Positions 27,594 to 49,702 of a DNA stretch of 64,000 nt are shown here, piece after piece. This stretch comes from Candidatus Woesebacteria bacterium (GTDB lineage Bacteria; Patescibacteriota; Microgenomatia; UBA8517): positions 237,226 to 301,225 of the forward strand of contig OY970314.1 of the NCBI GenBank assembly GCA_963716475.1. Direction: 5' to 3'. Position 1 is the stretch's first letter; the number at the start of each line of letters is the position of its first letter. A program made the position numbers and the translations under genes. A model generated the notes under the pieces. The model was not told where the DNA came from, searched no databases, and was given only the letters and a program-made list of their open reading frames with translations.

Positions 27594-28859
27594 TTATATA
27601 GGCTTGAGGGTTTTAAATAACAATTTTTGTATTTTGAAAATAAAAGTCTCAGTCCGGCGTTTTAAAATCACAGTTATGGGGCTTCCGTCCGGCGGATTTG
27701 TTATTCCTGCGGGGTAGTATCCGTCTGCGCTGATATTGGCCTTAACACCGGGTGTATCGTAAGGAAGATAAAATTGTCCGGAGCTTCCGGAAATTACGGT
27801 ATTATCTTGACTGACAATAGTTGCTCCGGAAATCCCCCGGCCTGCCTCGTTAATAAGCACTCCTTTCAAAACACTTGGCGTAAAGAAGTTTTTAAGTACA
27901 GCCGCTCCTTGTCTTCCCGTTCCGTTATCATTCCAAATTTGAGTAGTGCCGCCGAACCCTGTCCAATAATTGATACCGATAAGATTATGGTTATTTGCAA
28001 GTAGGGTTAAGGCGGAATTAATCCAATCCGCCTGTTGGGCTTCCGTTAAATTACCCTGTATTGAAGGAATCGGAACGCCGAATTCTCCTAAAACTACCTT
28101 GCCTCCGGAGGAGGTTGCAATATCCGTAATTCCCTGGTTAAGCTGCCCGGGTGTGGGAACGTAATGGTCAATAACTACTACTCCCCCAAGAGCCTGGGTT
28201 GTGGCCGGGTCCATCACAAGGCGGGCAACATCCGCGTTCATTGGAAAATAATTTGTAGTTACGTTCTTGCCGATCTGAGCCATTGCATCCCTGGAAATCT
28301 GGTACTCGTCTATTAAAAATTGCCTGTGTCCTGCCACATCTCCTGTTTGCCTGGGGTCCCCCGGACCTCCGTTTTCGCATTCAGTGCAGGCCGTAAAAAT
28401 ATCTCCGTCGGCAAATAGATTTCCGTTATCCAGAATAAATTGCTTGAGCATAGTCTCATGCAGGGTCCTTGTTATTGGAGGGTAATTAAACCATCCTTCC
28501 CAGCCTGCGAAGTTGCCCCTGAACCAGACATTGAGGTTATATTTACGGGCCGCGTCCACCCACCTTTTTAAAAACGGAATAAATTCGGAGTCATAAGGAG
28601 TTCCGATTGCAATGTAGTTGGCACCGGTTCCCGCGATGGCTTTGACCTGGGTGTCGATGGTTGCGTCGAAAACAGGGTCTCCCGCGTACTGTCTGGCCAG
28701 GTCGCGGCTAAATTTAACGGTATCAACCGACTGCACCTGCCAAAAATGCGCAGGGTAATCGCCGGGAACCACAGGGTTCTTTTTAAAGACGATAACGGTA
28801 CCAATAATTATTATCAGTACAATACAAATGACGGTTAGTATGATGTTAGTTTTTCGCAT
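27594..28859 (-). CDS. membrane-anchored putative glycoside hydrolase (TIM-barrel, GH5/GH113-like) with C-terminal CarboxypepD_reg-like domain
   Basis: N-terminal TM; candidate acid/base and nucleophile Glu (TECENGG, VVLGEFG); C-terminal beta-sandwich-like region GVLINEAGRGISGATIVSQDNTVISGSSGQFYL. Confidence 0.5.
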   Translation of the reverse strand: MRKTNIILTVICIVLIIIIGTVIVFKKNPVVPGDYPAHFWQVQSVDTVKFSRDLARQYAGDPVFDATIDTQVKAIAGTGANYIAIGTPYDSEFIPFLKRWVDAARKYNLNVWFRGNFAGWEGWFNYPPITRTLHETMLKQFILDNGNLFADGDIFTACTECENGGPGDPRQTGDVAGHRQFLIDEYQISRDAMAQIGKNVTTNYFPMNADVARLVMDPATTQALGGVVVIDHYVPTPGQLNQGITDIATSSGGKVVLGEFGVPIPSIQGNLTEAQQADWINSALTLLANNHNLIGINYWTGFGGTTQIWNDNGTGRQGAAVLKNFFTPSVLKGVLINEAGRGISGATIVSQDNTVISGSSGQFYLPYDTPGVKANISADGYYPAGITNPPDGSPITVILKRRTETFIFKIQKLLFKTLKPI

Positions 28860-28876: not shown

Positions 28877-30511
28877 CTATTTCTGTTTTCCGAGAACGGG
28901 AGTGTAATTAAGGCCTGAAAGGTACTGCGGGTCAATTTCATAAACGTCTGCAAAGGGATAACTTGACACCAGATGGTATTTGGCAAATCCCGGGGCGTTA
29001 GCGATTGCTTTATATGTTAAATCGTTATTATCATAAGTTCTCATCACGATCCAGCGTGCCCATTTGTCCGGCCGGGCAAGTGCGTTTGTCCAGTATAGCC
29101 CCGTTCCTTCATGAATAAACCTGCTCATGGGTAGACCTGAGGAGAATATGATAGCGTCATGACTGGCAACGGAGATTAATATAAAGCCCGGCTGATTCCC
29201 TGCGGCCTGGTTTAGATATCCGGCTACCTGACTGACGTTTTTCTGGGAGCTGCCCACCCTGGCGTCATCAATTGTAACGGCGTCGCCGTTTCTAAAAGCA
29301 AAGAACATTATGAATGCGTAAAGTCCTATTAAAACCCAACGCAGGTTTTTGACTCTTCCTATCAGGTAGCCGATAAATACCGCAAAAGCCGGCATCATCA
29401 TAATTCCGTAGCGGATGTTAAACCAGGTGTTACCGGAAATCCCCTGGACAAAAAGAACTGAAAAGCCCATAACCAGGGCCAATATATTAAAAACAAGGGG
29501 GGCCGCAAGAGATACCGTAGCAAGGCGCGTTGACCCTTTAATATTCTTGTCGGACCAAAGTAAGATTCCGGCAATAAATCCCAATCCCGCCACAAAAGTA
29601 ATACAGTTATAGAGAATTGCATACAAATAAATTTGACCGGACAGGAGAAGGTTGCCTTTAGTCGGCAGATTGCCGGCCGCCAGAAGCTGCATCTGCTGGG
29701 CATGTGCGGAAAAAGGACCCAGTACAAAATAAAGCGGATCTTTAAAAATGGCTGCGTTCCAGCCAAACCAGAGAACGATTCCGACTGCCCCCATGGTAAG
29801 AAAAAGAATCGTAAGCCCTTCGGCTACTTTATAACCCCGGTTTTTCCAGGTTGAAATTGCCACAATTGCTGTTGCAAAGAGAAGAAGAAACCAGCCGTCG
29901 TAACGCACGAGAGTGGAAAGCATAATCCAGAGAGAGGTCTTCATTAAATTAAGTAAGGATTTATCCTCCGCCCAGCAAATCAGGTAATAACAGCCGGCCG
30001 TCATGGTTGCGAGGAGTAAAAGCTCCGTCATTGCAGTGGATTGCAGGTATAAAATGTTGAGGTTGAGGGCAAAGACGGCAACTCCGGCAATACGGCCCAG
30101 TATATTTACATTCAGTTTCTCCAATATCTTATAGATGATGAGTCCGGTGGCAACAAAACTGATCATGTTCCAGATTGCTCCGGCAAACCCCGAGTGCCAG
30201 GCCCAATTATTCCAGACAAGAGGAATCATCAAAATATGATTAAGGGGCAGCCAGACGCTTCCGAGCTGGGCCAATCCCGGCTTGAGATTCTCTACAACCC
30301 TTCTGCCGATATCCAAGTGACTCCTTGCGTCGTTATAACTTAATCCCAAACCGTTTTGCAGAAATACATAGAAATAAGATATGGATAAGACACTTAAAAT
30401 CGCCGCAATCATCCAGAATATATTTCGTTTCAAAAATGAACGTAACTCAATAATCTGTTTTTTGGGAATCGCGAAATCAATAGATTTCTCGGTTGAATAT
30501 ATAGTTTTCAT
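28877..30511 (-). CDS. GT-C fold membrane glycosyltransferase (ArnT/PMT-like)
   Basis: 544 aa, about 11-13 TM helices; first extracytoplasmic loop carries an acidic/Arg motif (YNDARSHLDIGRRV) as in GT-C enzymes; large C-terminal soluble domain. Confidence 0.5.
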   Translation of the reverse strand: MKTIYSTEKSIDFAIPKKQIIELRSFLKRNIFWMIAAILSVLSISYFYVFLQNGLGLSYNDARSHLDIGRRVVENLKPGLAQLGSVWLPLNHILMIPLVWNNWAWHSGFAGAIWNMISFVATGLIIYKILEKLNVNILGRIAGVAVFALNLNILYLQSTAMTELLLLATMTAGCYYLICWAEDKSLLNLMKTSLWIMLSTLVRYDGWFLLLFATAIVAISTWKNRGYKVAEGLTILFLTMGAVGIVLWFGWNAAIFKDPLYFVLGPFSAHAQQMQLLAAGNLPTKGNLLLSGQIYLYAILYNCITFVAGLGFIAGILLWSDKNIKGSTRLATVSLAAPLVFNILALVMGFSVLFVQGISGNTWFNIRYGIMMMPAFAVFIGYLIGRVKNLRWVLIGLYAFIMFFAFRNGDAVTIDDARVGSSQKNVSQVAGYLNQAAGNQPGFILISVASHDAIIFSSGLPMSRFIHEGTGLYWTNALARPDKWARWIVMRTYDNNDLTYKAIANAPGFAKYHLVSSYPFADVYEIDPQYLSGLNYTPVLGKQK

Positions 30512-32043
30512 AGGTTTTTCGGATTTTTTCTTAAGGGAGTTAAGACGAGAGACAAACAGGCAATAATTATTGCTCCGGTAATAATTTCGTAATATTGGTA
30601 AGAAGTAAGAAATTTACTTAGGTAAGATTCATAAATAAATGATTTTGAAACACCCTGCCGCAGCTCGTAAATATTTCGGTCAAACGAATATCGTTGTACC
30701 TGCCCCGAGATTTGTTCGAGATTGGCAGCCTCAACCTGCGGTGGATTTGCACTCGAGGTAAGCGCCCCGGCCGTATTTACGATGACAGAGTAACCGAATA
30801 AGACCGAAAATATAATTAGCCGGAGACTGCTTGTCCGCCATTTATCAAGAAATGCCGCTATACAAATACCCCCCAGGCCGTAAAGCGGAATCAAATATCG
30901 TGAGCCAAAAGCCCAGCCTCCCCAGGGATCTCCCCAAAGTGCATAGAGGATAAGAGTTATCAGCATGACCGCTATTATTACGGAACCTATTTGGCGGTTT
31001 TTTCTGTAAATTACCCAGGCTCCGAGGATGCTTAAAAGTATCACCGGGGTAAATACGATAATTCCCCGATCCGGGCTGATAAGTTCCAGATAGAGACCGT
31101 TTACCAGATAACGTGATTGGAAGAAAGAGAGTGCCGATTTCGCAGGAGGTGTGTCAAAAGTTTTTTCAAGATCTGCGGTTACCGGCCGGGAATTTGCAGG
31201 ATTCCCGTTAGCGTCTATGTTTTTTACGGACTCTACCGTACCCGAAAATTGTAAAGGATTTTGATAGGATTTCAGGTTGAACCAGAGGAAAAATGCAAGC
31301 GGGACCAGAACCGTCAGAAAGCTAAATAAATGCCAAAGCTTTATTTTTAAATGGTAAGTCTTTGAAGTTTGTGTAAGGGTAAAATAATTCGCTAATGCCC
31401 AAATACCGATGGGGGCCATCAAAATGAGATTCGGATAGTCCAAAGGGATAGACATTGCGCACAGAAACCAGACCAGGGCGAGTGACCAGATCTTTTTGGA
31501 ACCGAGAAGTAAATAGAGACTAAGTAAAATCAGGAAAGTGGAGACGTGGTGCTGATAAAGAGTTACGGCATAATTAAATGCCGGTGTCGCAAACAGAAAC
31601 GTTAATGCACCAAGTGTAGACGCTACGGGATGAAAACCAAGTTTAACGGCAATTTGCCTGATTAGAAATACATTCAAGAGAGCAAAGATTGATATAACGG
31701 CATATGCTCCGAGCTGTGAACTTCCCAGAAGCTTACCGATTACATATCCCGGCATGACAATATAAGAAAGTCCCGGGGCGAATAGAGATACATAGTGGCC
31801 GTTAATATAACCAAGGTCAGGAATGGAGAACTGTGCGAGCGGAATAGAAAAGAAAAAGGATTTATTTTCCAGCAACGAATAGACCAACGCGAATCTCCCG
31901 CGCTCCGGTGAAAGTTCAAACGGACCATCACTTGTCCAGTAATTGGTATTAAGCGTATCCGGTGTGGGCGTTCCGATGTGTCCGCGCAAACTGAATAGTA
32001 GTATAACTGCCGCAAATATGAGGTATAGGTATTTGTTTTTCAT
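30508..32043 (-). CDS. GT-C fold membrane glycosyltransferase (paralog)
   Basis: 511 aa, polytopic; loop motif TSDGPFELSPERGRF after TM1; 4-nt overlap with the downstream gene suggests translational coupling. Confidence 0.5.
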   Translation of the reverse strand: MKNKYLYLIFAAVILLFSLRGHIGTPTPDTLNTNYWTSDGPFELSPERGRFALVYSLLENKSFFFSIPLAQFSIPDLGYINGHYVSLFAPGLSYIVMPGYVIGKLLGSSQLGAYAVISIFALLNVFLIRQIAVKLGFHPVASTLGALTFLFATPAFNYAVTLYQHHVSTFLILLSLYLLLGSKKIWSLALVWFLCAMSIPLDYPNLILMAPIGIWALANYFTLTQTSKTYHLKIKLWHLFSFLTVLVPLAFFLWFNLKSYQNPLQFSGTVESVKNIDANGNPANSRPVTADLEKTFDTPPAKSALSFFQSRYLVNGLYLELISPDRGIIVFTPVILLSILGAWVIYRKNRQIGSVIIAVMLITLILYALWGDPWGGWAFGSRYLIPLYGLGGICIAAFLDKWRTSSLRLIIFSVLFGYSVIVNTAGALTSSANPPQVEAANLEQISGQVQRYSFDRNIYELRQGVSKSFIYESYLSKFLTSYQYYEIITGAIIIACLSLVLTPLRKNPKNL

Positions 32044-32843
32044 ATTGAAATTCTGAGATTATTAATAGCGAAGCTGCGTAATTTTATTGCCAGGGTCGAG
32101 GATAATGCTTTAAATTCTATAAAGTCGAGTGTACGTGTTGTTCCGATTCTGGGAACATTTAACCGGTTAATCTTCGTATCCAATATTTTTTCATCCATGG
32201 AAAAACCAAGTGCGTAACCGCTTTTATCAACCAGTTGCAATATATCATTATTATATTTCCCCTTTGGATATGAAAAATAGCGTATAGGAATTTTTAGACG
32301 ATTCTCGAGCGCCAGCTTGCTGCCGCCGATTTCGCGGATCATTTGTTTCCGGTTACAGGTAGTTAAAATTGTGTGAGTAGCACCATGGCTACCGATTTCC
32401 CATCCGTCATTATGCAGGGAAAGTATCTGACTGTCCGACAGGAGCTTCTTCTGATTGCCTAGTTGGCTTCTGTCGGCATGCTCGACGTATGACAAAACGA
32501 ACAGAATCGGTTTAACACGATATTGCCTGAATAATTCTTTTGCCTGAAAAATATCGGCATAGCCGTCATCAAATGTTATTAGAAACTTGGGCTTAATCCA
32601 TCTTTTTTTGCCCTTTAAGTATGCTTCAAGATCCTGCGCGGTTGCCGGTTCAAAGTTTTTAGACATGTATTCAATCTGACGCCCGAGTGTTTCAAGGCTG
32701 ATACCGAATTTCCAGTTATCGTCCCCGACGCTATGGAAACATAAAACCACAAAATCGGGCCTCGTCAACCCCAGTAAACTATTCACGGCGTAGATGCACC
32801 TATTGATAACCTTACGGATAGTAATGAGCATATTTGTTTTCAT
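32040..32843 (-). CDS. polysaccharide deacetylase (NodB homology domain)
   Basis: FLITFDDGYADIF motif, HSVGDD and HGATHTIL His boxes. Confidence 0.75.
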   Translation of the reverse strand: MKTNMLITIRKVINRCIYAVNSLLGLTRPDFVVLCFHSVGDDNWKFGISLETLGRQIEYMSKNFEPATAQDLEAYLKGKKRWIKPKFLITFDDGYADIFQAKELFRQYRVKPILFVLSYVEHADRSQLGNQKKLLSDSQILSLHNDGWEIGSHGATHTILTTCNRKQMIREIGGSKLALENRLKIPIRYFSYPKGKYNNDILQLVDKSGYALGFSMDEKILDTKINRLNVPRIGTTRTLDFIEFKALSSTLAIKLRSFAINNLRISI

Positions 32844-32845: not shown

Positions 32846-33751
32846 TTATTTTGACGATCCCGCCAGTTCCCAGGTATTACCGATAACCGCTTTCTGATTA
32901 GAAACGGCAAATGTGTATAGAAATACAAACGGATAACAAATGGCGGCAAGAGGTGCTTTTATAAACATTTTTAGCCCCTCGGTTATGCAGAGAGCGGCGG
33001 GCCAGGCGTTTTGGTTTTGGACAAAGCCGGTTCCGAAGAAATCTTTCATAATTTTTACGGAATGTAAGTAGCGTACGCTTTGTTTTCTATTGTCCCCTAG
33101 AGTTGCCGGAATCCGGTAAAATATTTCGGTGTTTTTTACAAACGCGTATTTAAACCCGTTTTTAATTGCATAAAGGTAGGAAAACATATCCTCGCCATAA
33201 CTGAAAGGAAAATTTATCGATTTATATAGCCGTTTGGAAAAAGCCCTGGCTTGTCCGTGGCAGGTATATAAGTTCATACCCTTTTTGTATTTTTCAAAGA
33301 CACCGGACCGGTAAACGGCACCGAGGGTAAGCACTCTACTTACAAAATTCGAATTGTATAATTCGGACACCTTGCATGAAGTCAGATCAGATTCCCCGTC
33401 TATAATAGGTTTAGCCAATTTTATAAGGAAATCTTTGTTCCTGATCGATATATCGCCGTTCAGGACTATTAGAATATCGGACCCGGTCTTATGAGTAATT
33501 TGGTTCAGACCCCGGGCTATTCCCATCCGCTTTTTATTTTTTATTACGTGTATTAACGGACTTTTTATGGCCCGGATGGTTCCGACCGTATTATCAGTTG
33601 ATCCGTCGGACGAAACAATAATCCTATCTATCTTGATACCATCCTTATCCTGCTTAAGAAGCGCTCTTAAGAGCCGGCCTATGTTTTTTTCTTCATTAAA
33701 TGCAGGTATGCCGACGGTTAGCGTTTTTAAATGTTTGGATTTTTTTGGCAT
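32846..33751 (-). CDS. glycosyltransferase family 2
   Basis: VGIPAFNEEKNIGRLLRALLKQ...IIVSSDGSTDNT, the GT2 DxD/rossmann N-terminus. Confidence 0.8.
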   Translation of the reverse strand: MPKKSKHLKTLTVGIPAFNEEKNIGRLLRALLKQDKDGIKIDRIIVSSDGSTDNTVGTIRAIKSPLIHVIKNKKRMGIARGLNQITHKTGSDILIVLNGDISIRNKDFLIKLAKPIIDGESDLTSCKVSELYNSNFVSRVLTLGAVYRSGVFEKYKKGMNLYTCHGQARAFSKRLYKSINFPFSYGEDMFSYLYAIKNGFKYAFVKNTEIFYRIPATLGDNRKQSVRYLHSVKIMKDFFGTGFVQNQNAWPAALCITEGLKMFIKAPLAAICYPFVFLYTFAVSNQKAVIGNTWELAGSSK

Positions 33752-33752: not shown

Positions 33753-34661
33753 TTAATCTTTTGTTGAGTTAATGCTGGCCCAGGTACCGTTTATAAGTTT
33801 TGGAGGATTGACATATTTTACTACACGTAAAATAACCTGAATCAGAAGTGCCGTGGGAAGTAGTACCGGAAAGCGGATAAAAGTTTTGAGTATCCCCATA
33901 ATTTTTCTGGATAGGGGCACTTTAAATTCCGGGTTTAAGTCCTCGGTAAAATATTCCTGCACAAGTTTCTTACCGCTGATGAAGCGTACGTTCTGTTTTA
34001 GATAATCCTTAAAATTACCGGCAAGCCTGGTGTAGACAATAGCTTTTGAAGCAAATTTAAATTTGATTTTTTCTTTCCTGGCCAGAAAATATAAATATTT
34101 TGCATCGACGATTAAGCCTTGCGGAAAGTAAACCGTATCGGCAAAATTTTTACGGAGTGCCAAAGCAAGTCCGTTACAATTGTGAACGGAATCACCGCCG
34201 TTCAGATCTTTTCGTGTTTCATACCAAAACTCCTGTGTAACTTCCGTGATTTGTTCGAAGAAACTACGTGGAGGAAAAATCGCATCCCTTCCGCTAGTCA
34301 ACCCCACTGCCCCATTTTTAAACTCTGCCACAAGTTGGTCCAATACATGGTTATCCGATAACATACAGTCTGCATCGAAGGTAACGACAATATCGCTTTT
34401 ATTGATTCTAAAGAGCTGGTTAAGACGGTTAGCTTTACCGACAGAAGTTTCCCCAATCAGACATTCAATTTTTTTGTACCGCTCTCCCATTTTCTTGACA
34501 ATTTGGGGAGTTGCATCCGTACATCCGTCGCAAATCACCAAAATCTTATCCAGCACAAAATTATCCTGTTTTTGAGTAACTATTGACCGTAAAAGAGATT
34601 CGATGTTTTTTGCTTCATTTTTTGCCGGAATCCCTATGGTTACTTTTAATTTTTTAGACAT
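33753..34661 (-). CDS. glycosyltransferase family 2
   Basis: IGIPAKNEAKNIESLLRSIVTQ...ILVICDGCTDAT; paralog of the upstream GT2. Confidence 0.8.
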   Translation of the reverse strand: MSKKLKVTIGIPAKNEAKNIESLLRSIVTQKQDNFVLDKILVICDGCTDATPQIVKKMGERYKKIECLIGETSVGKANRLNQLFRINKSDIVVTFDADCMLSDNHVLDQLVAEFKNGAVGLTSGRDAIFPPRSFFEQITEVTQEFWYETRKDLNGGDSVHNCNGLALALRKNFADTVYFPQGLIVDAKYLYFLARKEKIKFKFASKAIVYTRLAGNFKDYLKQNVRFISGKKLVQEYFTEDLNPEFKVPLSRKIMGILKTFIRFPVLLPTALLIQVILRVVKYVNPPKLINGTWASINSTKD

Positions 34662-35577
34662 ATATTTTGTTCATAAGCTGATTTTTTATTCCGGGGTTTC
34701 TCAAATTGAAAAAGGCCTGACGCAGTGCGATATAGGTTTGCAAATGCTTATTTATTTGCTTTTTAGACACTTTATTAATTGAACGCATCCAAAAATCTTT
34801 TGATTGTGTAACGGCAAGATAATTTAAATCAAAATTGGGAAACGTGGTACCGGCTTCTTCCCAGTCGATTAGCCAAATTTTTCCATTTGTATTGATAATA
34901 TTGTCGGGCGATAGGTCTCCATGCATAAAGACTTTTTTAATACTCCGGTTTTTGTAAAACCAAAGCCAGGAGGCCGCTGCCGTCTTTATAATTTCCTTCG
35001 ATTTTTTTGGCTCATTAATGCAAAGTATTAGCGTATAAAACGGCAATGAAAGTATAGGGCTAACGCCTGCAGCTTTTATTGATTTATCGCGGCTTATGAA
35101 GTTTGACCAGTATCCGACTGAGCCGATTACTTTTTCCATGACCCTTTTTTGAACAGCCTTGTTATAAGAAGTTAAGCGTCGGCCCTTGATGTAAGGGTAG
35201 AAAACCGCAAACAAATTATTTTGCTCGATAGTATCGTGAATGTACGGAATGAATATTTCCTGCTTCCTTTTACTGAATATTTTACTTTTTAACATTTCAA
35301 TAACACGGGACTCATTTTTTAGGTTGTAGTAGTTAATATCTAAAATTTTTCCACGCCATACTTTTGCGAAATAATCTGATTTTCCGTCACTATAAATACC
35401 AAAAGAGAAATTTTCACTCTCTTTCAAATTCTTCTCCAGTTTGTATTTGCCAAGTCTATGAGGCAGCCGGGGGATTTTATTGTCGACTATCCTGTTTATC
35501 AATAGAGCCATATACAGCCATAAAGTAAAATAGGGGTATTTTTTTTGCATATTATGTAGCTCCTTTAAATAGTTCAA
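34654..35577 (-). CDS. protein-kinase-like fold phosphotransferase (APH/CotS/sugar-kinase-like)
   Basis: Catalytic loop HGDLSPDNIIN and DWE motif (Mg-binding Asp) typical of the aminoglycoside/choline-kinase superfamily. Confidence 0.5.
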   Translation of the reverse strand: MNYLKELHNMQKKYPYFTLWLYMALLINRIVDNKIPRLPHRLGKYKLEKNLKESENFSFGIYSDGKSDYFAKVWRGKILDINYYNLKNESRVIEMLKSKIFSKRKQEIFIPYIHDTIEQNNLFAVFYPYIKGRRLTSYNKAVQKRVMEKVIGSVGYWSNFISRDKSIKAAGVSPILSLPFYTLILCINEPKKSKEIIKTAAASWLWFYKNRSIKKVFMHGDLSPDNIINTNGKIWLIDWEEAGTTFPNFDLNYLAVTQSKDFWMRSINKVSKKQINKHLQTYIALRQAFFNLRNPGIKNQLMNKIYV

Positions 35578-38500
35578 GCGTTTGCGACGCGCTTTTATCC
35601 CAGTCGAAATTTCCCGACCACCTGACGGATTCCTTAGACATTTTTCTCCTCAAACCCGGATTTTCGAGAAGCCGCAGGATATTTCTTGTAAATTCGTCAA
35701 CGTCTCCGTATGAAACAAGAAATCCGCTGTGCGGATTATGAACAGCATCTCTTAGGCCCGCGACGTTACTGGCAATTACGGGAGTTCCGCAGGCATTTGC
35801 TTCAATTGTGGTAATTCCCCAACCTTCAATAAGCGACGGATTAACAAACACCCAGGCTTTTTGGTAGAGATTAACTTTCTCTTTTTCGCTAACTTTTCCT
35901 GTAAAAGTAATCTTGTGATCAAGGTGGAGTTTTTTGGTAAGTTTCATAAGGTTTCTCTTTTCGTCGCCGTCGCCTGCAATTACAAATTCAACCGTCGGCA
36001 TTCTTCTTAATATCTTTTTGGCACTTTTAATGAATATAGGAATACTTTTTTGCGGACTGAGCCTGCCTAGGTATAAAACCATGGGACTGACTGATTTCCT
36101 GCCGGGTTTATATATATTTGAGTCAACGCCGTTGTAAACCACATAAGGCTCGTTTTGTGAGATGTTGTGCTCCAAAATATCGGCTTTAGATGACGGTGAC
36201 ACAGTCATTACCTGCGTGTTTCTGTATACCGCCGGCATAGCATATTTTTCAAGAATCATTCCGATCCATGAGAGCGGCGGCTTTAGCCTGATGCGGAAAA
36301 CGTCCTGATGAACATGGTGAATTAAAAGGAATATTTTTTCTTTCGCATAAAGAGGCGTGAAAAAAGGAATTCCGTTTTCCGAATCTATAATTAAATCAAA
36401 ACGGCCTCTGAATTTGAATACATAATATAGAAATGCCCAGATAAATACTGTATAGAATCCTCCGCGGCGGATTATATTTATTCCGTCAATCTGTTCGTTT
36501 CTGGGTGACTTGTGGTCGTCCCCGCAGAATAGTGTGACTTCATGACCCTGCCTTACCCAGCGTTTGGCCAATTCGTGAACATAGACTTCCGCCCCGCCGC
36601 TCCAGACGTGTTTTGTATCGCGCCAGTTGAAGACTAAAATATTGAGTTTATTTTTATTGATAGCCGTAAGAGGCGCCGGCGCCGGTGTAAAAAGTCCCAG
36701 TAGGTCTAGCGTATTTCTGGAAACAGATTGCAGTTTTCGGTAGTTAATATGAACGGAAAGCATCGCAGCAAAGTAAGCAATTCCTCCGATAAACATGACA
36801 TCCACAATTTCGGAAATATTTGCATGGAAGACAAACATTCCTATTATTTGAAGCAATGAAAACATAAATCCAAAATACGGCAACATATGTTCGCCTTTGG
36901 ATTGGTGGTAAAGAATTATGCTAAGGGCTGATGTTTGGAATACCATGGCCAGTGAATAAAGAGGCAGAAAAGGTGTAACCGAGAGAATTTTGGGACCAAA
37001 AAGTATTGGCGCAGTAAACTTTCCAAATACTCCGATACCTATAAACGCAATAAGCGATGATATGACTGTCGCTGTCAGAAGTTTATAAAAAGTAGATTCG
37101 GACTTTTCCCCTTTACCCTCATGCCTGCTAATTAGCGGGATTATAAAGGGTGTAAACTGCGACCCGAAGAAATAAATCATTTTTCCCGTCAGTGAAAGGA
37201 GCGTATAGCGGCCCGCGTCTGCCGGGCTCAGGAAAAGTTTTGCAAGAATTACGTCGAATGTTAAAAATGCTATAACCGACAGATTATTAACGAATGTCGA
37301 AGTGAAAAATCTCTTTGGGAACGTTTCAGGTACGGCCAGCTGAACGCCCTCTTCCCTACTCTTTATGTGACTGGCGAAATACCAGCCTACTATGAAAGAA
37401 ATGAGCAGTGATGCCGGAATTGCCAGATAAACCAAATCATGTAATCCTATTTCTACAAAGAAAATTGAAAGTGATAGCTTAGTTAATGCGACAATTACCC
37501 CCATGAACCCGAAAACAATAAAAAGAAGATTCCCGTTGATGAATCCGGAATCAACCGCATTGGCGAGGCCGATGACCCAAATGGGAACAAAAATTATAAA
37601 AGGAACAATAGTATCGGATTTGAATACGTGTTGAAGAACGGGAGTTAGTAGCAGCCAGACTGTTGCCAGAACGATAGAAACTTTAATACCGTCTTTTCTG
37701 GTTTTTGCCCAAAATCTTTTGGCGGGTGTATCGTTCTTGCCGAGAAGGAAAGCGCTCTTATGAGTAACGGAGTTTGATAAGGCGCTAAAAGGAACCGTTG
37801 CCAGGTATAGGAAGCTTCCAACGAGACCCACCATTCCGAAATCTTCAAGGCTAAGTTTGCGGCCAAGATAGGCGTTATATAAAAAATTTAAAGCATTCTC
37901 AAACATCGTCGCCCCGATCAGAAATGCCCCTGAGAAATATTCTGATTTCACCAGAGTCTTTATTCTTGCGATTCCGGGTATTCTGAGATTTTTAATAAAA
38001 TTGAACTCAAAACTTTTTGCTACTTCTTCTTTAACTTTTACCCTGTCCAGTCCATGGATTGTCTTTTCCCAAAAATGAGGTTTGACGAGCAACTGGTAGA
38101 ATGCAACAAACGCCCCGATACTAGTTAGGAGCCAGTAAAACGGAACCAGGAAAACATATTTTATTATGCTCCACTCTTCTCTCTTGGCTGCGCCGATCAT
38201 GTAGTAGTAGAGGTAAAGAAAATTGCCGAAAACTGCAGAAAACACGGCCATATAAAATATCGAAGGCGGATATAAAGCCTCGATCTGGGGACCGACAAAT
38301 TTATAAAGCAGAAAGTAAGCTGCGGTCATAGCCCACAGAAAAGGATTTATCAGCATAAAACCTACTCTAAGACCCGAAACCAGCTGGAAGATTAAAGAGT
38401 GCACCCGTTTTTCCTTGGCGAAGCTTAGGGGATTTCGCATCTGGACAAAATATGTTTGCATGTAGCCCTTGAGCCACCTACTCCTTTGGCGTATCCAGTT

Positions 38501-40183
38501 TTTGAGATTACTGTTGGCTTCTTCCAAGGTTAACGAATCAATAATTGCGGTTTTATAGCCAGCCCTGAAAAGTCTGGCACCAAGATCCGCATCTTCAGTA
38601 ACATTAAACGGGTCCCAGCCTTCGATCTTCTTTAAACCTGCTGTTCTGAAGTGGTTACTAGTGCCGCCTAAAGGAATTGATGTTCCAATTGTTTGGAGTC
38701 CGGGGAGGACAACATCAAACCACAAAGAATATTCGGCTGTAAAAAGCCTGGTCAGAATATTTTGATGGGGATTATAGTAATTAAGTTTTGCCTGCAGGCA
38801 AATTACGTCTCTCCGTGAATTACGGAATCCTAAGTAAGCCTTTTTAAGTTGTTCCGGCTCAGGTTGATCTTCAGCGTCATAAATAACAATAAAATCCCCT
38901 TTTGCGTGATTCAACCCGTAATTACAGGCTTTGGGTTTGGTTTTTGGCTGTGAATCCGGAACTATTAAGATTCTGAAATAACCGGGAAGATCCATCTTGC
39001 GGGCGGCTTTGATTGTTTCTTTATCGTCATTTTCAAGAAGTAGCAATACGTCGAGTTTGTCCTTAGGCCAATCAAGTTTTTTAATATTTTCCACGAACTG
39101 AGGTAAAACCTCGGTCTCTCTGTAAAGAGGGCAAAGAATGGAGTAAACCGGAAGGCTCCCGTCGGCAATTCCTCTGAGCCGGCTCTCATCAAAGCTAATT
39201 TCAGGAGGACTATGCAAACTTTTAAGAACTAATAACCCGCCGAAAAGTACGTCCAAAAAGTACACAAAGGACAGGAGCGCAAGAAATATTATTGCAGTTA
39301 ACTGGGGACTAAAGACAAGTCCTAAGATAAATATAGCCAGCGCCAGGGATAAAACTAACTTTTGGATGGGTGTAAAGGTTACGATTGCGGATTTTGTCTG
39401 GTGAAGGGTTGTGTGGGTTATAAATCTCCGGTTTTTGTAGAATACACCGGCTCCAAGCATCGAATTTTTTAATTTAGGTTTTAGACGATAAATCTTACCC
39501 GGCGAGAGTCTTAGAGCTATCGCAGTACTAACGATTTGCCAGGAAGTTTTGATAAGGTTAACTTTAGATTTACCGCTTTCTCTTTTCTGAAAGTCAATGT
39601 TAATTGACCCGATTTTCATACCCAGCTGCTTTGCGGTGTGGATAAGATGTAAATCGAAAGCCCAGGGTTTGATATCTTTTGTCTCGAGATGGTAAATTAT
39701 CTCTCTTTTGAAAAGCTTCAAACCAGATTGGGTGTCCAGATCCGTTCCGAGAAGGAATTTGGCATAAATCATATGCCCGGCCTTCGATATAAACCGTCTT
39801 AAACGACCCTCTTTATGGATTTTCCTATTTCCGATTACTATCCCCAAATTGTCTTTTTCTGCTTTTTTCAGCATCTCGGGGATGTATTCAGGTGCATACT
39901 GCAAGTCGCCGTCTATCATGGCGATGTATTCAGCATCTGAATGCTCCGAACCTTCCAAAATCGAGTAGCCTTTTCCGACTCTACCCTGCTTTAATAAAAT
40001 CGTTACAGGGTACTTCCCTGACAGACTTCTGAGAGCTCCGCCGATGTTATCGCTGGAGTGGTCGTCGATAATGATAATACCGTAGGGGATTTTTAACCTG
40101 CCCAGGCTTTTCCCGATTCTGGAGGTTAATTTATAAAGACTTGCGCTTTCATTTAAGACCGGAATAACGACATCAATCTTATT
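35552..40183 (-). CDS. giant multidomain polysaccharide synthase: GT2(Dpm1-like)-TM-GT2(processive, QxxRW)-Wzx-like flippase-GT4 fusion
   Basis: Continuous 1568-codon ORF (track start is TTG at 40258; probable ATG MNKIDVVIPVLNES at about 40183). Domains: VVIPVLNESASL...IIIIDDHSSD...DGDLQ (GT2); DAEDQPE...TEDADLG...QRSRWLKG (cellulose-synthase-like GT2); about 12-TM polysaccharide-biosynthesis/flippase-like segment; C-terminal GT4 (GGAEVYVHELAKRW...EGWGITTIEANACGTPVIAS). Confidence 0.8.
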   Translation of the reverse strand, partial: NKIDVVIPVLNESASLYKLTSRIGKSLGRLKIPYGIIIIDDHSSDNIGGALRSLSGKYPVTILLKQGRVGKGYSILEGSEHSDAEYIAMIDGDLQYAPEYIPEMLKKAEKDNLGIVIGNRKIHKEGRLRRFISKAGHMIYAKFLLGTDLDTQSGLKLFKREIIYHLETKDIKPWAFDLHLIHTAKQLGMKIGSINIDFQKRESGKSKVNLIKTSWQIVSTAIALRLSPGKIYRLKPKLKNSMLGAGVFYKNRRFITHTTLHQTKSAIVTFTPIQKLVLSLALAIFILGLVFSPQLTAIIFLALLSFVYFLDVLFGGLLVLKSLHSPPEISFDESRLRGIADGSLPVYSILCPLYRETEVLPQFVENIKKLDWPKDKLDVLLLLENDDKETIKAARKMDLPGYFRILIVPDSQPKTKPKACNYGLNHAKGDFIVIYDAEDQPEPEQLKKAYLGFRNSRRDVICLQAKLNYYNPHQNILTRLFTAEYSLWFDVVLPGLQTIGTSIPLGGTSNHFRTAGLKKIEGWDPFNVTEDADLGARLFRAGYKTAIIDSLTLEEANSNLKNWIRQRSRWLKGYMQTYFVQMRNPLSFAKEKRVHSLIFQLVSGLRVGFMLINPFLWAMTAAYFLLYKFVGPQIEALYPPSIFYMAVFSAVFGNFLYLYYYMIGAAKREEWSIIKYVFLVPFYWLLTSIGAFVAFYQLLVKPHFWEKTIHGLDRVKVKEEVAKSFEFNFIKNLRIPGIARIKTLVKSEYFSGAFLIGATMFENALNFLYNAYLGRKLSLEDFGMVGLVGSFLYLATVPFSALSNSVTHKSAFLLGKNDTPAKRFWAKTRKDGIKVSIVLATVWLLLTPVLQHVFKSDTIVPFIIFVPIWVIGLANAVDSGFINGNLLFIVFGFMGVIVALTKLSLSIFFVEIGLHDLVYLAIPASLLISFIVGWYFASHIKSREEGVQLAVPETFPKRFFTSTFVNNLSVIAFLTFDVILAKLFLSPADAGRYTLLSLTGKMIYFFGSQFTPFIIPLISRHEGKGEKSESTFYKLLTATVISSLIAFIGIGVFGKFTAPILFGPKILSVTPFLPLYSLAMVFQTSALSIILYHQSKGEHMLPYFGFMFSLLQIIGMFVFHANISEIVDVMFIGGIAYFAAMLSVHINYRKLQSVSRNTLDLLGLFTPAPAPLTAINKNKLNILVFNWRDTKHVWSGGAEVYVHELAKRWVRQGHEVTLFCGDDHKSPRNEQIDGINIIRRGGFYTVFIWAFLYYVFKFRGRFDLIIDSENGIPFFTPLYAKEKIFLLIHHVHQDVFRIRLKPPLSWIGMILEKYAMPAVYRNTQVMTVSPSSKADILEHNISQNEPYVVYNGVDSNIYKPGRKSVSPMVLYLGRLSPQKSIPIFIKSAKKILRRMPTVEFVIAGDGDEKRNLMKLTKKLHLDHKITFTGKVSEKEKVNLYQKAWVFVNPSLIEGWGITTIEANACGTPVIASNVAGLRDAVHNPHSGFLVSYGDVDEFTRNILRLLENPGLRRKMSKESVRWSGNFDWDKSASQTLELFKGAT

Positions 40184-40320
40184 CATATTTTTGCTGACCC
40201 CATATCCTAAGTGAAGGAATCCCCCTCTCGTTATGGGGTTATGAGAACTTGTTGGCAATTATGCAATAAAATGCTGAATAATTGCTGAAATATATAGCTA
40301 AGATTTTATAAGAATGACGG

Positions 40321-45603: not shown

Positions 45604-47349
45604 TTGTTTATCATGCCCACTGCCAAACCTATTCCAATTACGGAGGATAACGGAACCGAAACTCTAGCTGACGTTTTGGTAAAACTCGGAGTTCTTGATG
45701 CGACGCGTGCCAAACAGATAAAACTTGCGGAGATTCAAAGCGGATCGACTCAAGAGGATATTCTCAGACAGGGTAATATGGTGCCTGAGGGAAAATTGGT
45801 CCAGGCAAAAGCTCAACTTTATAATATTCAGTTTATAGATCTGACTGCAATCCCCATAGCTCCGGCTGCCCTTTCGGCACTTCCCGCAGAAGTAGCGGAG
45901 CGTTTCAAAGTTTTTCCTGTAGGAATCGACAGAAAAGACAAAAGCTTAATTCTGGCGATGGCAGACCCCCTGGACCTCTCCGCAATAGAGTTTATCGAGC
46001 AAAAAACAGGTTTTCATATCAGACCACGTGCGGCTCTTGCATCACAGATAGAAGATTTTGTTCAGAACCGCTACACGTCTTCTCTTACCCAGGAGGTATC
46101 GGCGGCGCTTAAGGAAGTCGAGCCCGAGAAGGAAAAAATGGCGGCTCTTCAGAATTCCACAGGGGGGTTCATACGCGAGGAAAAAATTGCCCAGATTGTG
46201 TCGCAAATATTGGAATTTGCCATTAAGAGCAGGGCCAGCGACGTTCATATAGAACCTCAGGAAAAATCCACCAGAGTCCGCTATCGAATCGATGGAATTT
46301 TGCAGGAAAAGCTTTCAATCCCAAGGGAACTCCATGATTCTTTAATTTCGAGAATAAAGATATTAAGCGGAATGAAAATTGATGAGAAAAGAATCCCCCA
46401 GGACGGCAGATTTAATTTTAAAGGCAGTGAGGAGGAGGTCGATCTTCGTATTTCATCTCTTCCGACAACCTGGGGAGAAAAAATTGTCATGAGGCTTCTC
46501 AAAAAATCAGGCGGTGTACCCGACCTTCCCGAACTGGGACTTAGGGGCCGGGGTTTAAAGAATTTACAGGATGCAATCCTCCGGCCTCACGGAATAATTC
46601 TTATCTGCGGACCGACGGGATCCGGTAAAACAACAACACTTTATTCGGTTATATCCAAGCTGAATACTACAAAGGTCAATATTGTTACTTTGGAAGACCC
46701 TATCGAGTATAAAATACCCGGTGTAAATCAGGTGCAGATTAACCCTGCGGTAGGACTGACTTTTGCATCCGGCTTGAGGTCATTCCTTCGTCAGGACCCG
46801 AATATTATTCTGGTCGGGGAAATTAGGGATCGCGAAACTGCCGATTTGGCCGTTCAGGCTTCACTTACGGGGCATTTGGTATTTTCAACTTTGCATACGA
46901 ATGATGCTTCGGGCGCCCTCCCCCGCCTTCTTGATATGGGTGCCGAGCCGTATCTTCTGGCATCGTCAATTACCTGTATTGTGGCTCAGCGTGTGGTTAG
47001 GGAAGTTCACCAAGCCTGCAAAGAGGCCTACTCACCCGATCCTAAAGTTTTGTCTGATATTCAGAAGGAACTGGGTAATCTTTGGCACCCGACGGGGGAA
47101 GTCAAATTTTATAAGGGTAAGGGCGATCCCGATTGCGCCAACTCGGGTTATTACGGCAGGATTGGTATTTTTGAAGTTATTCCCGCTTCGGAAATGATCG
47201 GAAAACTGATTTTGGAAAGGGCTTCCTCGACCGATATAGAGAAAATGGCAAGACAAGAGGGAATGATATCTCTCAAACAGGACGGGTACTTGAAAGTTAC
47301 CGAAGGAATTACTACAGTAGAAGAGGTACTAAGGGTAGCACAGGAATAA
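45604..47349 (+). CDS. pilB: type IV pilus assembly ATPase PilB (GspE family)
   Basis: N-terminal GSPII_E_N domain; Walker A GPTGSGKTTTLYS; Asp box, Walker B and His box. Confidence 0.9.
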   Translation: MFIMPTAKPIPITEDNGTETLADVLVKLGVLDATRAKQIKLAEIQSGSTQEDILRQGNMVPEGKLVQAKAQLYNIQFIDLTAIPIAPAALSALPAEVAERFKVFPVGIDRKDKSLILAMADPLDLSAIEFIEQKTGFHIRPRAALASQIEDFVQNRYTSSLTQEVSAALKEVEPEKEKMAALQNSTGGFIREEKIAQIVSQILEFAIKSRASDVHIEPQEKSTRVRYRIDGILQEKLSIPRELHDSLISRIKILSGMKIDEKRIPQDGRFNFKGSEEEVDLRISSLPTTWGEKIVMRLLKKSGGVPDLPELGLRGRGLKNLQDAILRPHGIILICGPTGSGKTTTLYSVISKLNTTKVNIVTLEDPIEYKIPGVNQVQINPAVGLTFASGLRSFLRQDPNIILVGEIRDRETADLAVQASLTGHLVFSTLHTNDASGALPRLLDMGAEPYLLASSITCIVAQRVVREVHQACKEAYSPDPKVLSDIQKELGNLWHPTGEVKFYKGKGDPDCANSGYYGRIGIFEVIPASEMIGKLILERASSTDIEKMARQEGMISLKQDGYLKVTEGITTVEEVLRVAQE

Positions 47350-47350
47350 C

Positions 47351-48409
47351 ATGAACGTTAAACAATTACTGCAATCCGTGATAGATGCTGAGGCAAGCGA
47401 TTTACATCTTGTAACGGGTATTCCGCCGACTCTGCGTAAAGACGGGGAGCTTATGCCGATTCCCTCTACCGGTGTTCTTACTCCGGATAATATCGGGGAT
47501 CTTCTTAAGGAGATATTGACCAGCGAACAAATCGAGAGACTGGCCGTTAATAAAGAATTGGATTTTTCTCTGTCATTTTCCGAAAAAGGAAGGTTCAGAG
47601 TCAACGCTTATACGCAGAAAGGCTCACTGGCCGCTGCTTTCAGGTTAATTCCTTTAGTAATTCCTTCAATTGAAAATTTGGGACTTCCCTCGATCTTGCA
47701 TTCATTTACCAGTTTGCGTCAGGGTTTTGTTCTGGTAACCGGTCCTACCGGACACGGAAAGTCTACAACACTGGCAGCGATGATTCAGGAAATTAATCAG
47801 ACCCGCCCGGTTCATATTGTGACAATCGAAGATCCGGTCGAGTTTGTTTTTAACCCGGTAAAGGCAATTATTTCCCAAAGAGAAATGCGAAGTGACACTC
47901 ATTCGTGGGAAATTGCTCTCCGCTCGGCTCTTAGGGAGGACCCCGACGTTGTATTTATAGGTGAAATGAGAGATTACGAAACCATTGCGGCGGCTCTGAC
48001 TGTTGCCGAAACCGGGCATCTGGTTTTTGCAACCCTGCATACCAATAATGCGGCGCAGTCAATCGACAGAATTGTGGATGTTTTTCCCGAGGAGCAGCAG
48101 CAGCAGATACGTTTACAACTGAGTAATGTCATCGAGGCAGTCTTTTCTCAAAGACTTATCCAAAGTGCCACCAAAGGCAGAGTGGTCACATATGAAGTAA
48201 TGTTGGGAAGTAGCGCCATCCGGACCACCATCCGCGAGGGCAAGACTCATCAGATTGAGAGCATTATTGAAACTTCCCACGAGGTTGGTATGAGTACTCT
48301 GGAAAGGTCTCTTGCCGATTTGGTCAAAAGAGGCGTGGTTACGCTTGAGGTGGCAGAAAGTTGGTCCCTTCGTCCGGAAGAACTGACACGTCTGATCCGT
48401 ACCACTTAA
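47351..48409 (+). CDS. pilT: twitching-motility/retraction ATPase PilT
   Basis: GPTGHGKSTTLAAMI Walker A; PilT-like length (352 aa) and C-terminal AIRNLIRE-like block (AIRTTIREGK). Confidence 0.85.
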   Translation: MNVKQLLQSVIDAEASDLHLVTGIPPTLRKDGELMPIPSTGVLTPDNIGDLLKEILTSEQIERLAVNKELDFSLSFSEKGRFRVNAYTQKGSLAAAFRLIPLVIPSIENLGLPSILHSFTSLRQGFVLVTGPTGHGKSTTLAAMIQEINQTRPVHIVTIEDPVEFVFNPVKAIISQREMRSDTHSWEIALRSALREDPDVVFIGEMRDYETIAAALTVAETGHLVFATLHTNNAAQSIDRIVDVFPEEQQQQIRLQLSNVIEAVFSQRLIQSATKGRVVTYEVMLGSSAIRTTIREGKTHQIESIIETSHEVGMSTLERSLADLVKRGVVTLEVAESWSLRPEELTRLIRTT

Positions 48410-48435
48410 TATGGTAAGTAAAGGAAACTTCAGTA

Positions 48436-49644
48436 ATGAAAAGGTTTAATTACAAAGCCAAAGACAAGTTAGGGAATCTTGTTACGGGGGAAGTAGAGGC
48501 ATTCACTCCAAATGCGGCTGCAAGGCTGGTTAAGGGCAGAGGTCTTTATGTTATTTCCATAACGCCTAAAATGGACTCCCCCTTTGCCGTTATAAGAAGA
48601 TACAGGGACAGGGTTACCGTTGGTGATGTTGCAACTTTTACACGCCAACTTTCAACGATGATCAACGCGGGTCTCCCCATTACGGAGGCGATTTTAATTT
48701 TGAGATCACAGTCGAAAGGATCGATGCAAAAAATTGTCGCCCAGATTCTTGCGGATATTGAGGCGGGAGATTCTTTTTCCGACTCACTAAGTAAGCACCC
48801 TAAAGTATTCTCCCGTACGTATATTGCCCTCGTCCGGTCGGGGGAGGTCGGCGGAGTAATGGATGCGGTACTTCTCCGGTTGGCCGATAATATGGAGAAA
48901 CAGGAAGAATTCGGCAGCCGCGTGAGAGGGGCAATGATTTACCCGGCAATCATTATTGTAGGAATGGTAGTAGTCAGTTTCGTGATGATGATTTTTGTTA
49001 TCCCTAAGTTAACTTCTCTTTATACGGATTTTGGTGCCACACTCCCCGTCCCGACACAGATACTTATGGGAGTTTCTAGTTTCTTTGTCCGTTTTTGGTA
49101 CATAATGATCCTCCTCGTGGGTGGGGTGCTTTACGCTTACAGAATATATGTTTCAACACCCAAAGGGCGCAGGAATATGGACGCCTTTATATTCAAAATT
49201 CCCGTATATGGTGAGCTGCAGCGTCAGATTATTTTAACGGAATTGACACGTACTCTTTCTCTCATGGTCGGAGCAGGCGTTCCCATTCTTGAGGCTCTGA
49301 CTATTACTTCCGAGGTTGTGACCAATACTATAATTTCAGAAGCCTTGCGGGATGCGGCAACACAGGTTGAAAGAGGATTTCCTATAGCCTTTTCGTTTTC
49401 GCGTCATCCCGAGGCCTTCCCGTATTTATTAAGCCAGATGATAGCAGTGGGAGAAGAAACGGGGAAAATGGATGAAGTTTTGACTAAAATCAGCCACATT
49501 TTCGAAGTGGAAAGCGATGAAAAAGTCAAAGGTCTAACTGCGGCGATTGAACCGCTTGTGATGATAGTTTTGGGTATCGGGGTCGGATTTTTGGTTATTG
49601 CCGTAATACTTCCGATTTATAATTTGACCAGTCAAATTCAATAA
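48436..49644 (+). CDS. pilC: type IV pilus platform protein PilC (GspF family)
   Basis: Two GspF repeats with 3 TM; typical cytoplasmic-domain motifs. Confidence 0.85.
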   Translation: MKRFNYKAKDKLGNLVTGEVEAFTPNAAARLVKGRGLYVISITPKMDSPFAVIRRYRDRVTVGDVATFTRQLSTMINAGLPITEAILILRSQSKGSMQKIVAQILADIEAGDSFSDSLSKHPKVFSRTYIALVRSGEVGGVMDAVLLRLADNMEKQEEFGSRVRGAMIYPAIIIVGMVVVSFVMMIFVIPKLTSLYTDFGATLPVPTQILMGVSSFFVRFWYIMILLVGGVLYAYRIYVSTPKGRRNMDAFIFKIPVYGELQRQIILTELTRTLSLMVGAGVPILEALTITSEVVTNTIISEALRDAATQVERGFPIAFSFSRHPEAFPYLLSQMIAVGEETGKMDEVLTKISHIFEVESDEKVKGLTAAIEPLVMIVLGIGVGFLVIAVILPIYNLTSQIQ

Positions 49645-49702
49645 AATTAGCTTCGGAATAGTACTTGACAAGCAAATTTAGATAGTTAATACTGAATATG
49701 TA

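Follow-up and report, generated by a model that had tools for sequence, protein, structure and literature searches.

The window considered here is a 64,000-nucleotide (nt) stretch of DNA from a Candidatus Woesebacteria bacterium (contig OY970314.1, positions 237,226 to 301,225), and the subject is one long minus-strand gene in it, which encodes four glycan-related modules in a single polypeptide: two family 2 glycosyltransferase domains (GT2a and GT2b), a MOP-superfamily domain and a family 4 glycosyltransferase domain (GT4). Reading and translation of the window show an uninterrupted open reading frame (ORF) at 35552..40258, as stated in the initial annotation, whose first possible start is a TTG at 40258. 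The length given there, 1,568 amino acids (aa), is probably too great. An ATG at 40186 gives the N-terminus MNKIDVV..., and because a G-rich Shine-Dalgarno-like stretch lies upstream of this ATG, the N-termini of homologues agree with it and a database entry with 100% identity to the fusion (P0001, carried on a 983-kb contig) has the same length, the start is most likely at 40186 and the protein 1,544 aa long. Its parts are laid out as follows, with the lines of evidence in brackets, AF2 denoting AlphaFold2.

35552..40186, minus strand: whole coding sequence of the GT2a-GT2b-MOP-GT4 fusion, 1,544 aa (stop codon TAA at 35552-35554).
39467..40186, minus strand: module 1 (GT2a), aa 1-240, a GT-A fold GT2 resembling dolichol-phosphate-mannose synthase (DPMS), ArnC and GtrB (Pfam, PDB, NCBIfam, alignment).
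39209..39466, minus strand: linker and two-helix transmembrane hairpin, aa 241-326, joining two cytoplasmic GT2 domains (alignment, AF2, hydropathy).
38417..39208, minus strand: catalytic part of module 2 (GT2b), aa 327-590, a processive-type GT2 (Pfam PF13641 and PF13632, NCBIfam, AF2, alignment).
38081..38416, minus strand: C-terminal membrane part of module 2, aa 591-702, with three or four transmembrane or interface helices (AF2 secondary structure, hydropathy, loop charge).
36692..37942, minus strand: module 3, aa 749-1165, a 12-helix MOP-superfamily (Wzx/PST-like) domain (AF2, Foldseek, weak PF01943).
35555..36640, minus strand: module 4, aa 1183-1544, a GT-B fold GT4 of the retaining type (Pfam PF13439 and PF00534, PDB, NCBIfam, alignment).

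The fusion is a real and widely conserved membrane protein of the Microgenomates, which belong to the candidate-phyla-radiation bacteria. A protein search returned 1,597 proteins at E<=1e-10, and the best 120 of these 1,597 relatives are almost all 1,513-1,599 aa long, with 99-100% coverage and 49-74% identity. Counted as independent 90%-identity clusters, the full-length homologues number more than 120; they derive from NCBI, JGI, ENA and Logan assemblies and carry the labels Woesebacteria, Gottesmanbacteria, Microgenomates or Patescibacteria. When one genome of each GTDB species was scanned, at least 593 genomes encoded a relative, and all four modules stand in a single ORF at about 20 of the genome loci that were fetched. 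It could be argued that an assembly chimera, or a sequencing error reading through separate genes, has produced the long ORF, since split versions exist in other genomes (e.g. L015, L016, L019 and L036 among the loci compared below) and gene boundaries fall at module junctions in some lineages. However, neither a chimera nor a frameshifted pseudogene, the possible refutations named in the initial annotation, is compatible with the recurrence of the same architecture in so many independent clusters and at about 20 loci. Moreover, the linkers can be aligned, the catalytic motifs are invariant and an identical 1,544-aa protein exists on the 983-kb contig, so that an artefact is extremely improbable. 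The motifs by which the modules were initially recognized (VVIPVLNES, DGDLQ, DAEDQPE, TEDADLG, QRSRWLKG and EGWGITTIEANACGTPVIAS) are all present in the translation, and the proposed four-module composition is recovered by Pfam for the GT2, the synthase-like GT2 and the GT4, and by AF2 and Foldseek for the flippase-like domain, for which the Pfam score of the window copy is sub-threshold.

Module 1 is, to judge from its sequence matches, of the polyprenyl-phosphate-sugar synthase type, and transfer of a sugar to polyprenyl monophosphate is predicted. Glycos_transf_2 (PF00535) matches aa 6-164 with an E-value of 4e-37, and PDB sequences matched include the Pyrococcus dolichol-phosphate-mannose synthase (5mlz, 6.5e-18), ArnC (~1e-12) and GtrB (5ekp, 3e-8). 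Among NCBIfam models it matches ArnC, PgfS and AglJ (the last at 4e-14, far below the equivalog cut-off). The D92xD94 motif is invariant in an alignment of 48 sequences. The linker that follows has the consensus FITHTTLxHxxSA, with T257, H258, S266 and A267 invariant, and leads into hairpin helices placed by AF2 secondary structure at aa 273-292 and 294-325.

Module 2 as a whole (aa ~273-702) consists of this two-helix hairpin, a GT-A domain and then three or four further helices. Pfam Glyco_tranf_2_3 and Glyco_trans_2_3 match aa 348-626 (E 3e-24 and 1e-21), and the motifs D437-A-E-D440, T530-E-D532 and Q567-R-S-R-W571 are invariant in the 48 sequences. The AF2 model of the module (pLDDT 87) matches BcsA of E. 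coli and Rhodobacter in Foldseek (E 2e-15, TM-score 0.56-0.61), together with viral and Xenopus hyaluronan synthase (HAS) and the fungal chitin synthases Chs1/2. By this model, it is a glycosyltransferase domain packed on a transmembrane channel, with a BcsA/HAS-like fold, and its C-terminal helices would form the synthase channel. The top-ranking NCBIfam scores are 70.6 for CelA, against a cut-off of 699, and 59.6 for PgaC, against 422. Because every score lies far under its cut-off, so that the module falls into no named NCBIfam equivalog (CelA, PgaC/IcaA, NodC), its sequence marks it as a separate family within the BcsA/PgaC/HAS/Chs class.

Module 3 is a putative flippase for a polyprenyl-linked sugar. 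Its identity rests on the fold search, because its sequence found no match in the PDB sequence search and none in NCBIfam, and Polysacc_synt (PF01943) reaches 17.4 bits on the window copy, below the cut-off of 28.2. The AF2 model of aa 730-1185 (pLDDT 90, pTM 0.88) matches the MATE transporter 6gwh, WzxE (9g95) and MurJ (6nc9), with Foldseek probability 1.0 and TM-scores of 0.63-0.73. Precomputed PF01943 matches are present on 13 homologues among those listed, and PF13440 on some homologues. Queried against 1.84 billion representative proteins, module 3 yielded 139 clusters at E<=1e-30, which fall into stand-alone proteins of ~410-470 aa, proteins of 720-900 aa in which MOP is followed by GT4, and proteins of 1,400-1,611 aa with MOP in the middle.

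Module 4 is matched by Glyco_transf_4 (aa 1197-1356) and Glycos_transf_1 (aa 1362-1520, E 5e-41), and both EX7E glutamates, E1454 and E1462, are invariant in the 48 sequences. Its PDB matches are MshA, TarM, PimA and BshA, and the NCBIfam model of Agl16 is matched over its full length (5e-29), far below the equivalog cut-off. MOP and GT4 form a two-domain ORF at about nine loci as well as in many of the 720-900-aa representatives. Because of this tight pairing, GT4 is suggested to act before flipping, either extending the lipid-linked donor or making a glycolipid.

Mean identities of 47 homologues to the window protein were calculated by region. The GT2b catalytic part is the most conserved module (71%), followed by the GT2b membrane helices (67%), GT4 (60%), GT2a (46%) and MOP (44%), and the linkers after GT2b (aa 703-748 and 1166-1182) have 22-36%. 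From these values all modules are constrained, the synthase module most.

The fusion is the first of nine tightly packed minus-strand genes that run from 40186 down to 27594 (12.6 kb) and probably form one operon. Upstream of the fusion lie gyrB and an H+-pyrophosphatase gene. The gap between the fusion stop and the next start is only 2 nt, and the remaining junctions are overlaps of 4-8 nt or short gaps. Scanning the operon for consensus promoters and terminators gave counts at chance level. The genes that bear on the pathway are listed below.

34654..35550, minus strand: APH/choline-kinase-like phosphotransferase (ATG 2 nt after the fusion stop).
33753..34661, minus strand: soluble GT2 glycosyltransferase, variable part of the operon (domain scans, comparison of loci).
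32846..33751, minus strand: second soluble GT2 glycosyltransferase, variable part of the operon (domain scans, comparison of loci).
32040..32843, minus strand: CE4 polysaccharide deacetylase, PgaB/IcaB/NodB-like (at about 20 fetched loci, not universal).
30508..32043, minus strand: conserved 511-aa polytopic membrane protein, termed GT-C 1 (NF047440, PMT_2 in orthologues, synteny).
28877..30511, minus strand: 544-aa membrane protein, termed GT-C 2, the universal partner of the synthase GT2 (PMT_2 in orthologues, fused relatives).
27594..28859, minus strand: 421-aa protein, the last conserved gene of the operon (orthologue domains, conserved Glu, synteny).

The 511-aa and 544-aa proteins are probably PMT_2-like GT-C glycosyltransferases. 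PMT_2 is matched by 7 of 47 orthologues of the former (best 5e-6) and by 17 of 52 orthologues of the latter (best 4.6e-8), and a few orthologues of the two match PMT or TMEM260-like models. The 511-aa protein also has a sub-threshold match to NCBIfam NF047440 ("LA_3751/LA_3752 putative glycosyltransferase", 7e-16), and an Asp within an N-terminal YNDARSHLD loop is invariant in the alignment of the 544-aa family. The 421-aa protein probably combines a clan GH-A-like glycoside hydrolase core with a CarboxypepD_reg beta-sandwich, a weak assignment drawn from CarboxypepD_reg in 15 of 32 orthologues, weak Glyco_hydro_cc matches in 4 of 32 and conserved Glu columns. In P0066, P0071, P0073, P0076 and P0116, which have five modules with PF01636 and are 1,818-1,876 aa long, the kinase-like sequence has become the C-terminal part of the giant protein; a comparable C-terminal extension in P0089 (1,859 aa) has no precomputed Pfam match. 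Because of these fusions, a phosphotransferase step, e.g. phosphorylation of a glycan or sugar, may belong to the pathway.

Functional statements made here are drawn from sequence, predicted structure and gene association. The proposal that we favor, and to which we give an even chance of being right, is that the fusion is the central machine of a synthase-dependent surface glycan, in which a three-component decoration system using polyprenyl-phosphate sugars has been joined onto the synthase. Module 2 would polymerize a beta-linked backbone of hexose or N-acetylhexosamine (HexNAc) from nucleotide sugar and extrude it through its own channel, and module 1 would attach a sugar to polyprenyl phosphate on the cytoplasmic side of the membrane. 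The MOP module would flip this lipid-linked sugar, possibly after extension by the adjacent GT4. Outside the membrane, the two GT-C proteins encoded downstream would use the flipped donor to decorate or extend the emerging polymer. The variable genes of the operon (extra GT2 and GT4, CE4, kinase-like) would diversify the product, and the conserved hydrolase-like protein would trim or release it. With fusion, a 1:1 stoichiometry would be secured and the lipid donor kept near the synthase, in cells whose genome is very small.

No GtrA family was found in Pfam scans of the fusion and operon genes, the MOP domain being present instead; by analogy, the latter could take the flippase position in Microgenomates. 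GacK, a protein of the Wzx family, has been proposed as the flippase working with GacI and GacL in group A Streptococcus (bioRxiv 10.1101/180810), so that a Wzx-family flippase within a three-component triad has a precedent. The initial annotation had instead described a complete line of lipid-linked glycan assembly and translocation in one protein, a description that goes too far on three counts. The fusion and the scanned operon genes have no PF02397, PF00953 or Wzy_C matches, i.e. no initiating phosphoglycosyltransferase and no Wzy-type polymerase, and a Wzx/Wzy-type repeat-unit pathway was rejected on this ground. The second GT2 is of the BcsA/HAS type, a class that exports its own polymer rather than performing a step on lipid-linked repeat units. 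Finally, the fusion does not suffice by itself, its conserved partners (the two GT-C proteins and the hydrolase-like protein) being encoded by separate genes.

The four modules and the operon proteins were mapped by tblastn onto 83 related loci, among which orthologous fusions and split genes, a comparison suggested at the outset, are both found. The fusion is one state of a mosaic, whose modules also occur as split genes, in partial fusions or joined to different partners. At Microgenomates loci, the order is the giant gene, a variable middle (GT2, GT4, CE4, kinase-like, methyltransferase, sugar aminotransferase and epimerase genes) and, at the end, a conserved trio of ~510-, ~540- and ~420-aa proteins. 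Elsewhere, two ORFs, [GT2a+GT2b] and [MOP+GT4], stand in succession (L019, L036, L039, L043, L048, L056), GT2a is a separate gene (L015, L016), GT2a+GT2b+GT4 has MOP as the next gene (L037, L044), or GT2b+MOP and further arrangements occur. A literature search found no paper describing the fusion architecture, and public annotation of homologues reads merely "glycosyltransferase" or "cellulose synthase/PNAG synthase-like". The claim that the architecture is highly unusual has to be qualified, since it is standard equipment across the Microgenomates and one mosaic state among others. Each module belongs to a known class; new are the joining of four functions in one covalent chain and the repeated linkage of a BcsA-like synthase with a GT-C protein.

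The last point emerges from the universal core of the loci, which is GT2b plus the 544-aa GT-C. In Chloroflexota, GT2b and the 544-aa orthologue are fused in one ORF of ~1,000 aa (L073, L074, L080, L081), and the window 544-aa protein matches the fusion of L074 with an E-value of 3e-40. A Ktedonobacterales locus of the same phylum (L078) has a 1,534-aa ORF composed of GT2a, GT2b and PMT_2 (34.7 bits, above the Pfam cut-off), and the window 544-aa protein is 32% identical to its PMT_2 module over 512 aa (E 4e-67). The gene after this fusion encodes a GtrA_DPMS_TM flippase (E 6e-21). By its domain content, L078 is the classical GtrB/GtrA/GT-C triad wrapped around a synthase.

The same core also brings to mind a lipid-primed synthase with a ligase, in which module 1 would make a polyprenyl-phosphate sugar as the primer, module 2 would elongate it processively and export the chain, as in synthase-dependent O-antigen, and the GT-C would transfer the finished chain from its lipid to wall, lipid or protein. 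This would fit the minimal core of GT2b and GT-C, their direct fusion in Chloroflexota, and the position of GT2a, which is always immediately N-terminal to GT2b, with a conserved linker and two-helix hairpin between them. However, GT-C enzymes of the PMT_2/ArnT type are known for moving single sugars from polyprenyl monophosphate rather than complete chains. Moreover, it is not apparent what a separate flippase would do in this scheme, although the synthase is accompanied by a GtrA gene (L078) or a MOP module, and many genomes have GT2b and GT-C with no GT2a nearby. We consider this route unlikely.

The pairing of MOP with GT4, on the other hand, is suggestive of a lipoglycan of the mycobacterial lipomannan/lipoarabinomannan (LM/LAM) type. 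GT4 would glycosylate a lipid anchor in the manner of PimA, MOP would flip it, module 1 would supply polyprenyl-phosphate sugar as a Ppm1-like enzyme and the GT-Cs would polymerize outside the membrane, leaving module 2 to a separate or auxiliary glycan. GT4 does match PimA and PimB structures (E ~1e-15) and the model of alpha-monoglucosyl-diacylglycerol synthase, MOP and GT4 co-occur as a unit, and two GT-C paralogues and a Dpm1-like GT2 are at hand. Yet this scheme leaves the best-conserved module, GT2b, without a role, does not explain the GT2b-GT-C fusions and is at odds with minimal systems that are devoid of both GT4 and MOP. Its probability appears as low as that of the lipid-primed route.

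Protein O-glycosylation has to be weighed as well, since PMT/PMT_2 is the protein O-mannosyltransferase family and giant SpaA-repeat surface proteins and many pilins are encoded in the window and at L001. Module 1, the flippase and the PMT_2-like GT-Cs would then act on secreted or surface proteins, e.g. pilins or SpaA-repeat adhesins, as do actinobacterial Ppm1/Pmt, and the other modules would build the glycan. However, PMT_2 also includes ArnT-like enzymes that act on lipids or glycans, and a synthase fused to GT-C, a CE4 enzyme and a glycoside-hydrolase-like partner point to a polysaccharide acceptor. The surface-protein genes, moreover, are not syntenic with the operon across loci. We regard this explanation as quite improbable, more so than either of the two preceding ones.

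Several points weigh against the favored proposal of a synthase joined to a decoration system. GT2 enzymes of the QxxRW type include non-processive lipid glycosyltransferases, so that polymer synthesis by module 2 is not proven. Hydropathy and loop-charge counts did not fix the parity of transmembrane helices, and hence the topology, after GT2b. MOP and GT-C proteins normally begin in the cytoplasm, and both kinds of fusion therefore imply a cytoplasmic GT2b C-terminus, with which the K/R-rich linker at aa 701-748 (11 K/R) agrees. The window copies of the 511-aa and 544-aa proteins have no Pfam match themselves, which is why the GT-C assignment rests on Pfam scans of orthologues, fused relatives and the sub-threshold NCBIfam match, and HMM profiles of both families found nothing among PDB sequences. 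At some of the 83 loci, tblastn detected GT2a+GT2b+GT4 but no MOP. The role given to GT4 is a guess and the weakest link.

Further features are consistent with a synthase of the exopolysaccharide type, namely a pair of MshEN domains in Paraconexibacter, a GH113 neighbor in Chloroflexia, the CE4 gene of the window and the hydrolase-like partner. Clues to the polymer conflict with each other: CE4 and the similarity to PgaC indicate HexNAc, whereas the GH113 neighbor and PcManGT, the best PDB sequence match, indicate mannan.

The Paraconexibacter protein (L083:9065-11326, Paraconexibacter sp. AEG42_29, NZ_CP114014.1) is an actinobacterial orthologue of the synthase module with 50% identity and two N-terminal MshEN domains. 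As these are receptors of cyclic di-GMP (c-di-GMP), c-di-GMP control of the synthase family outside Patescibacteria is predicted. With a complete chromosome and no label as a metagenome-assembled genome (MAG), this strain may be the most tractable organism for finding the polymer of the family. In the Chloroflexia MAG (L074), a gene of GH113, a beta-mannanase family (8246-9295), lies directly upstream of the GT2b-GT-C fusion (9794-12784), an adjacency which hints at a backbone that is beta-mannan-like rather than a GlcNAc polymer. A Saccharimonadales MAG (L044, 152-17594) carries on one strand two [GT2a+GT2b] genes, each with a GT-C gene, plus a GT2b-like ORF, and on the other strand an almost complete fusion beside a separate MOP gene, which suggests local expansion of the system. 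Contigs titled 'uncultured Gammaproteobacteria', 'Bdellovibrionales' or 'Pseudomonadales' (L007, L008, L010, L012, L018, L023 and others) carry an operon of the Patescibacteria type, and such titles are probably wrong automatic taxon labels rather than real occurrences.

Other genes of the window include a type IV pilus cluster on the plus strand (45604-55740). Its T2SSE ATPase (45604-47349) is PilB-like and carries MshEN at the N-terminus; two more genes extend to 49644, a prepilin peptidase is encoded at 50538-51008, and about nine genes for 160-200-aa proteins stand in tandem, with N-terminal methylation (pilin) motifs in three of four scanned members. Directly after the pilin array, a RelA/SpoT-family protein (HD_4 + RelA_SpoT) is encoded at 55755-57581 on the minus strand. 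A second giant ORF (11739-16409, minus strand, 1,556 aa) has eight SpaA_2 prealbumin-fold repeats with DUF11/DUF7507 and the look of a sortase-type surface adhesin or pilin; kinship with the fusion was rejected for this SpaA_2/DUF11 surface protein. A similar 2,189-aa VWA and SpaA protein and a sortase are encoded just upstream of the fusion gene at L001. At 21903-24695 and 61160-63919, both on the minus strand, lie genes for two further large proteins that probably belong to the surface and have bacterial Ig-like repeats, Big_3_5 in one and Big_2 with sub-threshold SdrD_B, SpaA and CBM27 in the other.

Beyond the single protein, GT2b with a GT-C partner, optionally joined by a Dpm1-like GT2, a flippase and a GT4, could represent an unrecognized and widespread route to envelope glycans in Patescibacteria and Chloroflexota, in which an exporter like cellulose synthase would be physically tied to an extracytoplasmic transferase requiring polyprenyl-phosphate sugars. 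The megaprotein would be its most integrated form and the product a major surface polymer. This generalization is doubtful, though it is a more probable idea than any of the rival explanations above. Genomes of Microgenomates and other candidate-phyla-radiation bacteria measure ~1 Mb, yet a 4.6-kb gene and a 12.6-kb operon are retained for this system, so that its product probably matters for the envelope or for attachment to a host. According to PMC12114108, none of these bacteria has been isolated from groundwater. The natural fusions act as a Rosetta stone that ties a BcsA-like synthase to a GT-C protein, a Dpm1-like lipid-sugar synthase and a flippase, and they predict how synthase-made polymers would be decorated on emerging from the membrane. 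A single polypeptide with donor synthesis, flipping and polymerization would be a target for cryo-electron microscopy and glycoengineering and a handle on the flipping of polyprenyl-phosphate sugars.

Among known systems, BcsA, PgaC/IcaA, HAS and chitin synthases share with module 2 the D, DxD, TED and QxxRW set, N- and C-terminal transmembrane helices and the fold, and the alignment to PgaC covers almost the entire PgaC model. The pga, ica and bcs operons, like that of the window, have a CE4 deacetylase and a hydrolase-like gene accompanying the synthase. Unlike BcsA/PgaC systems, module 2 lacks a PilZ domain as well as partners resembling BcsB or PgaD, and it is fused to a Dpm1-like GT2, MOP and GT4 and partnered with GT-C. 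Module 3 has the 12 helices and two lobes of WzxE, MurJ and AglR of the MOP superfamily, but differs from Wzx/PST flippases in being a small dedicated subfamily that is usually fused to GT4 or embedded within the giant protein. The joint use of a Dpm1-like GT2, a GT4, a putative MOP flippase and probable GT-C proteins recalls the mycobacterial lipoglycan pathway (Ppm1/PimA/GT-C) and the archaeal dolichol-phosphate N-glycan pathway (AglJ/AglR/Agl16/AglS), whose components are separate proteins and include no BcsA-like synthase. Three-component systems (GtrB/GtrA/GtrC, CsbB/GtcA/YfhO, GacI/GacK/GacL, ArnC/ArnEF/ArnT) unite a GT2 with a flippase and a GT-C, a set to which the DPMS/GtrB/ArnC-like module 1, the flippase candidate and the probable GT-C partners correspond, whereas here the components are covalently fused together and to a synthase, the GT-C partner exists as two paralogues and a GT4 is attached to the flippase.

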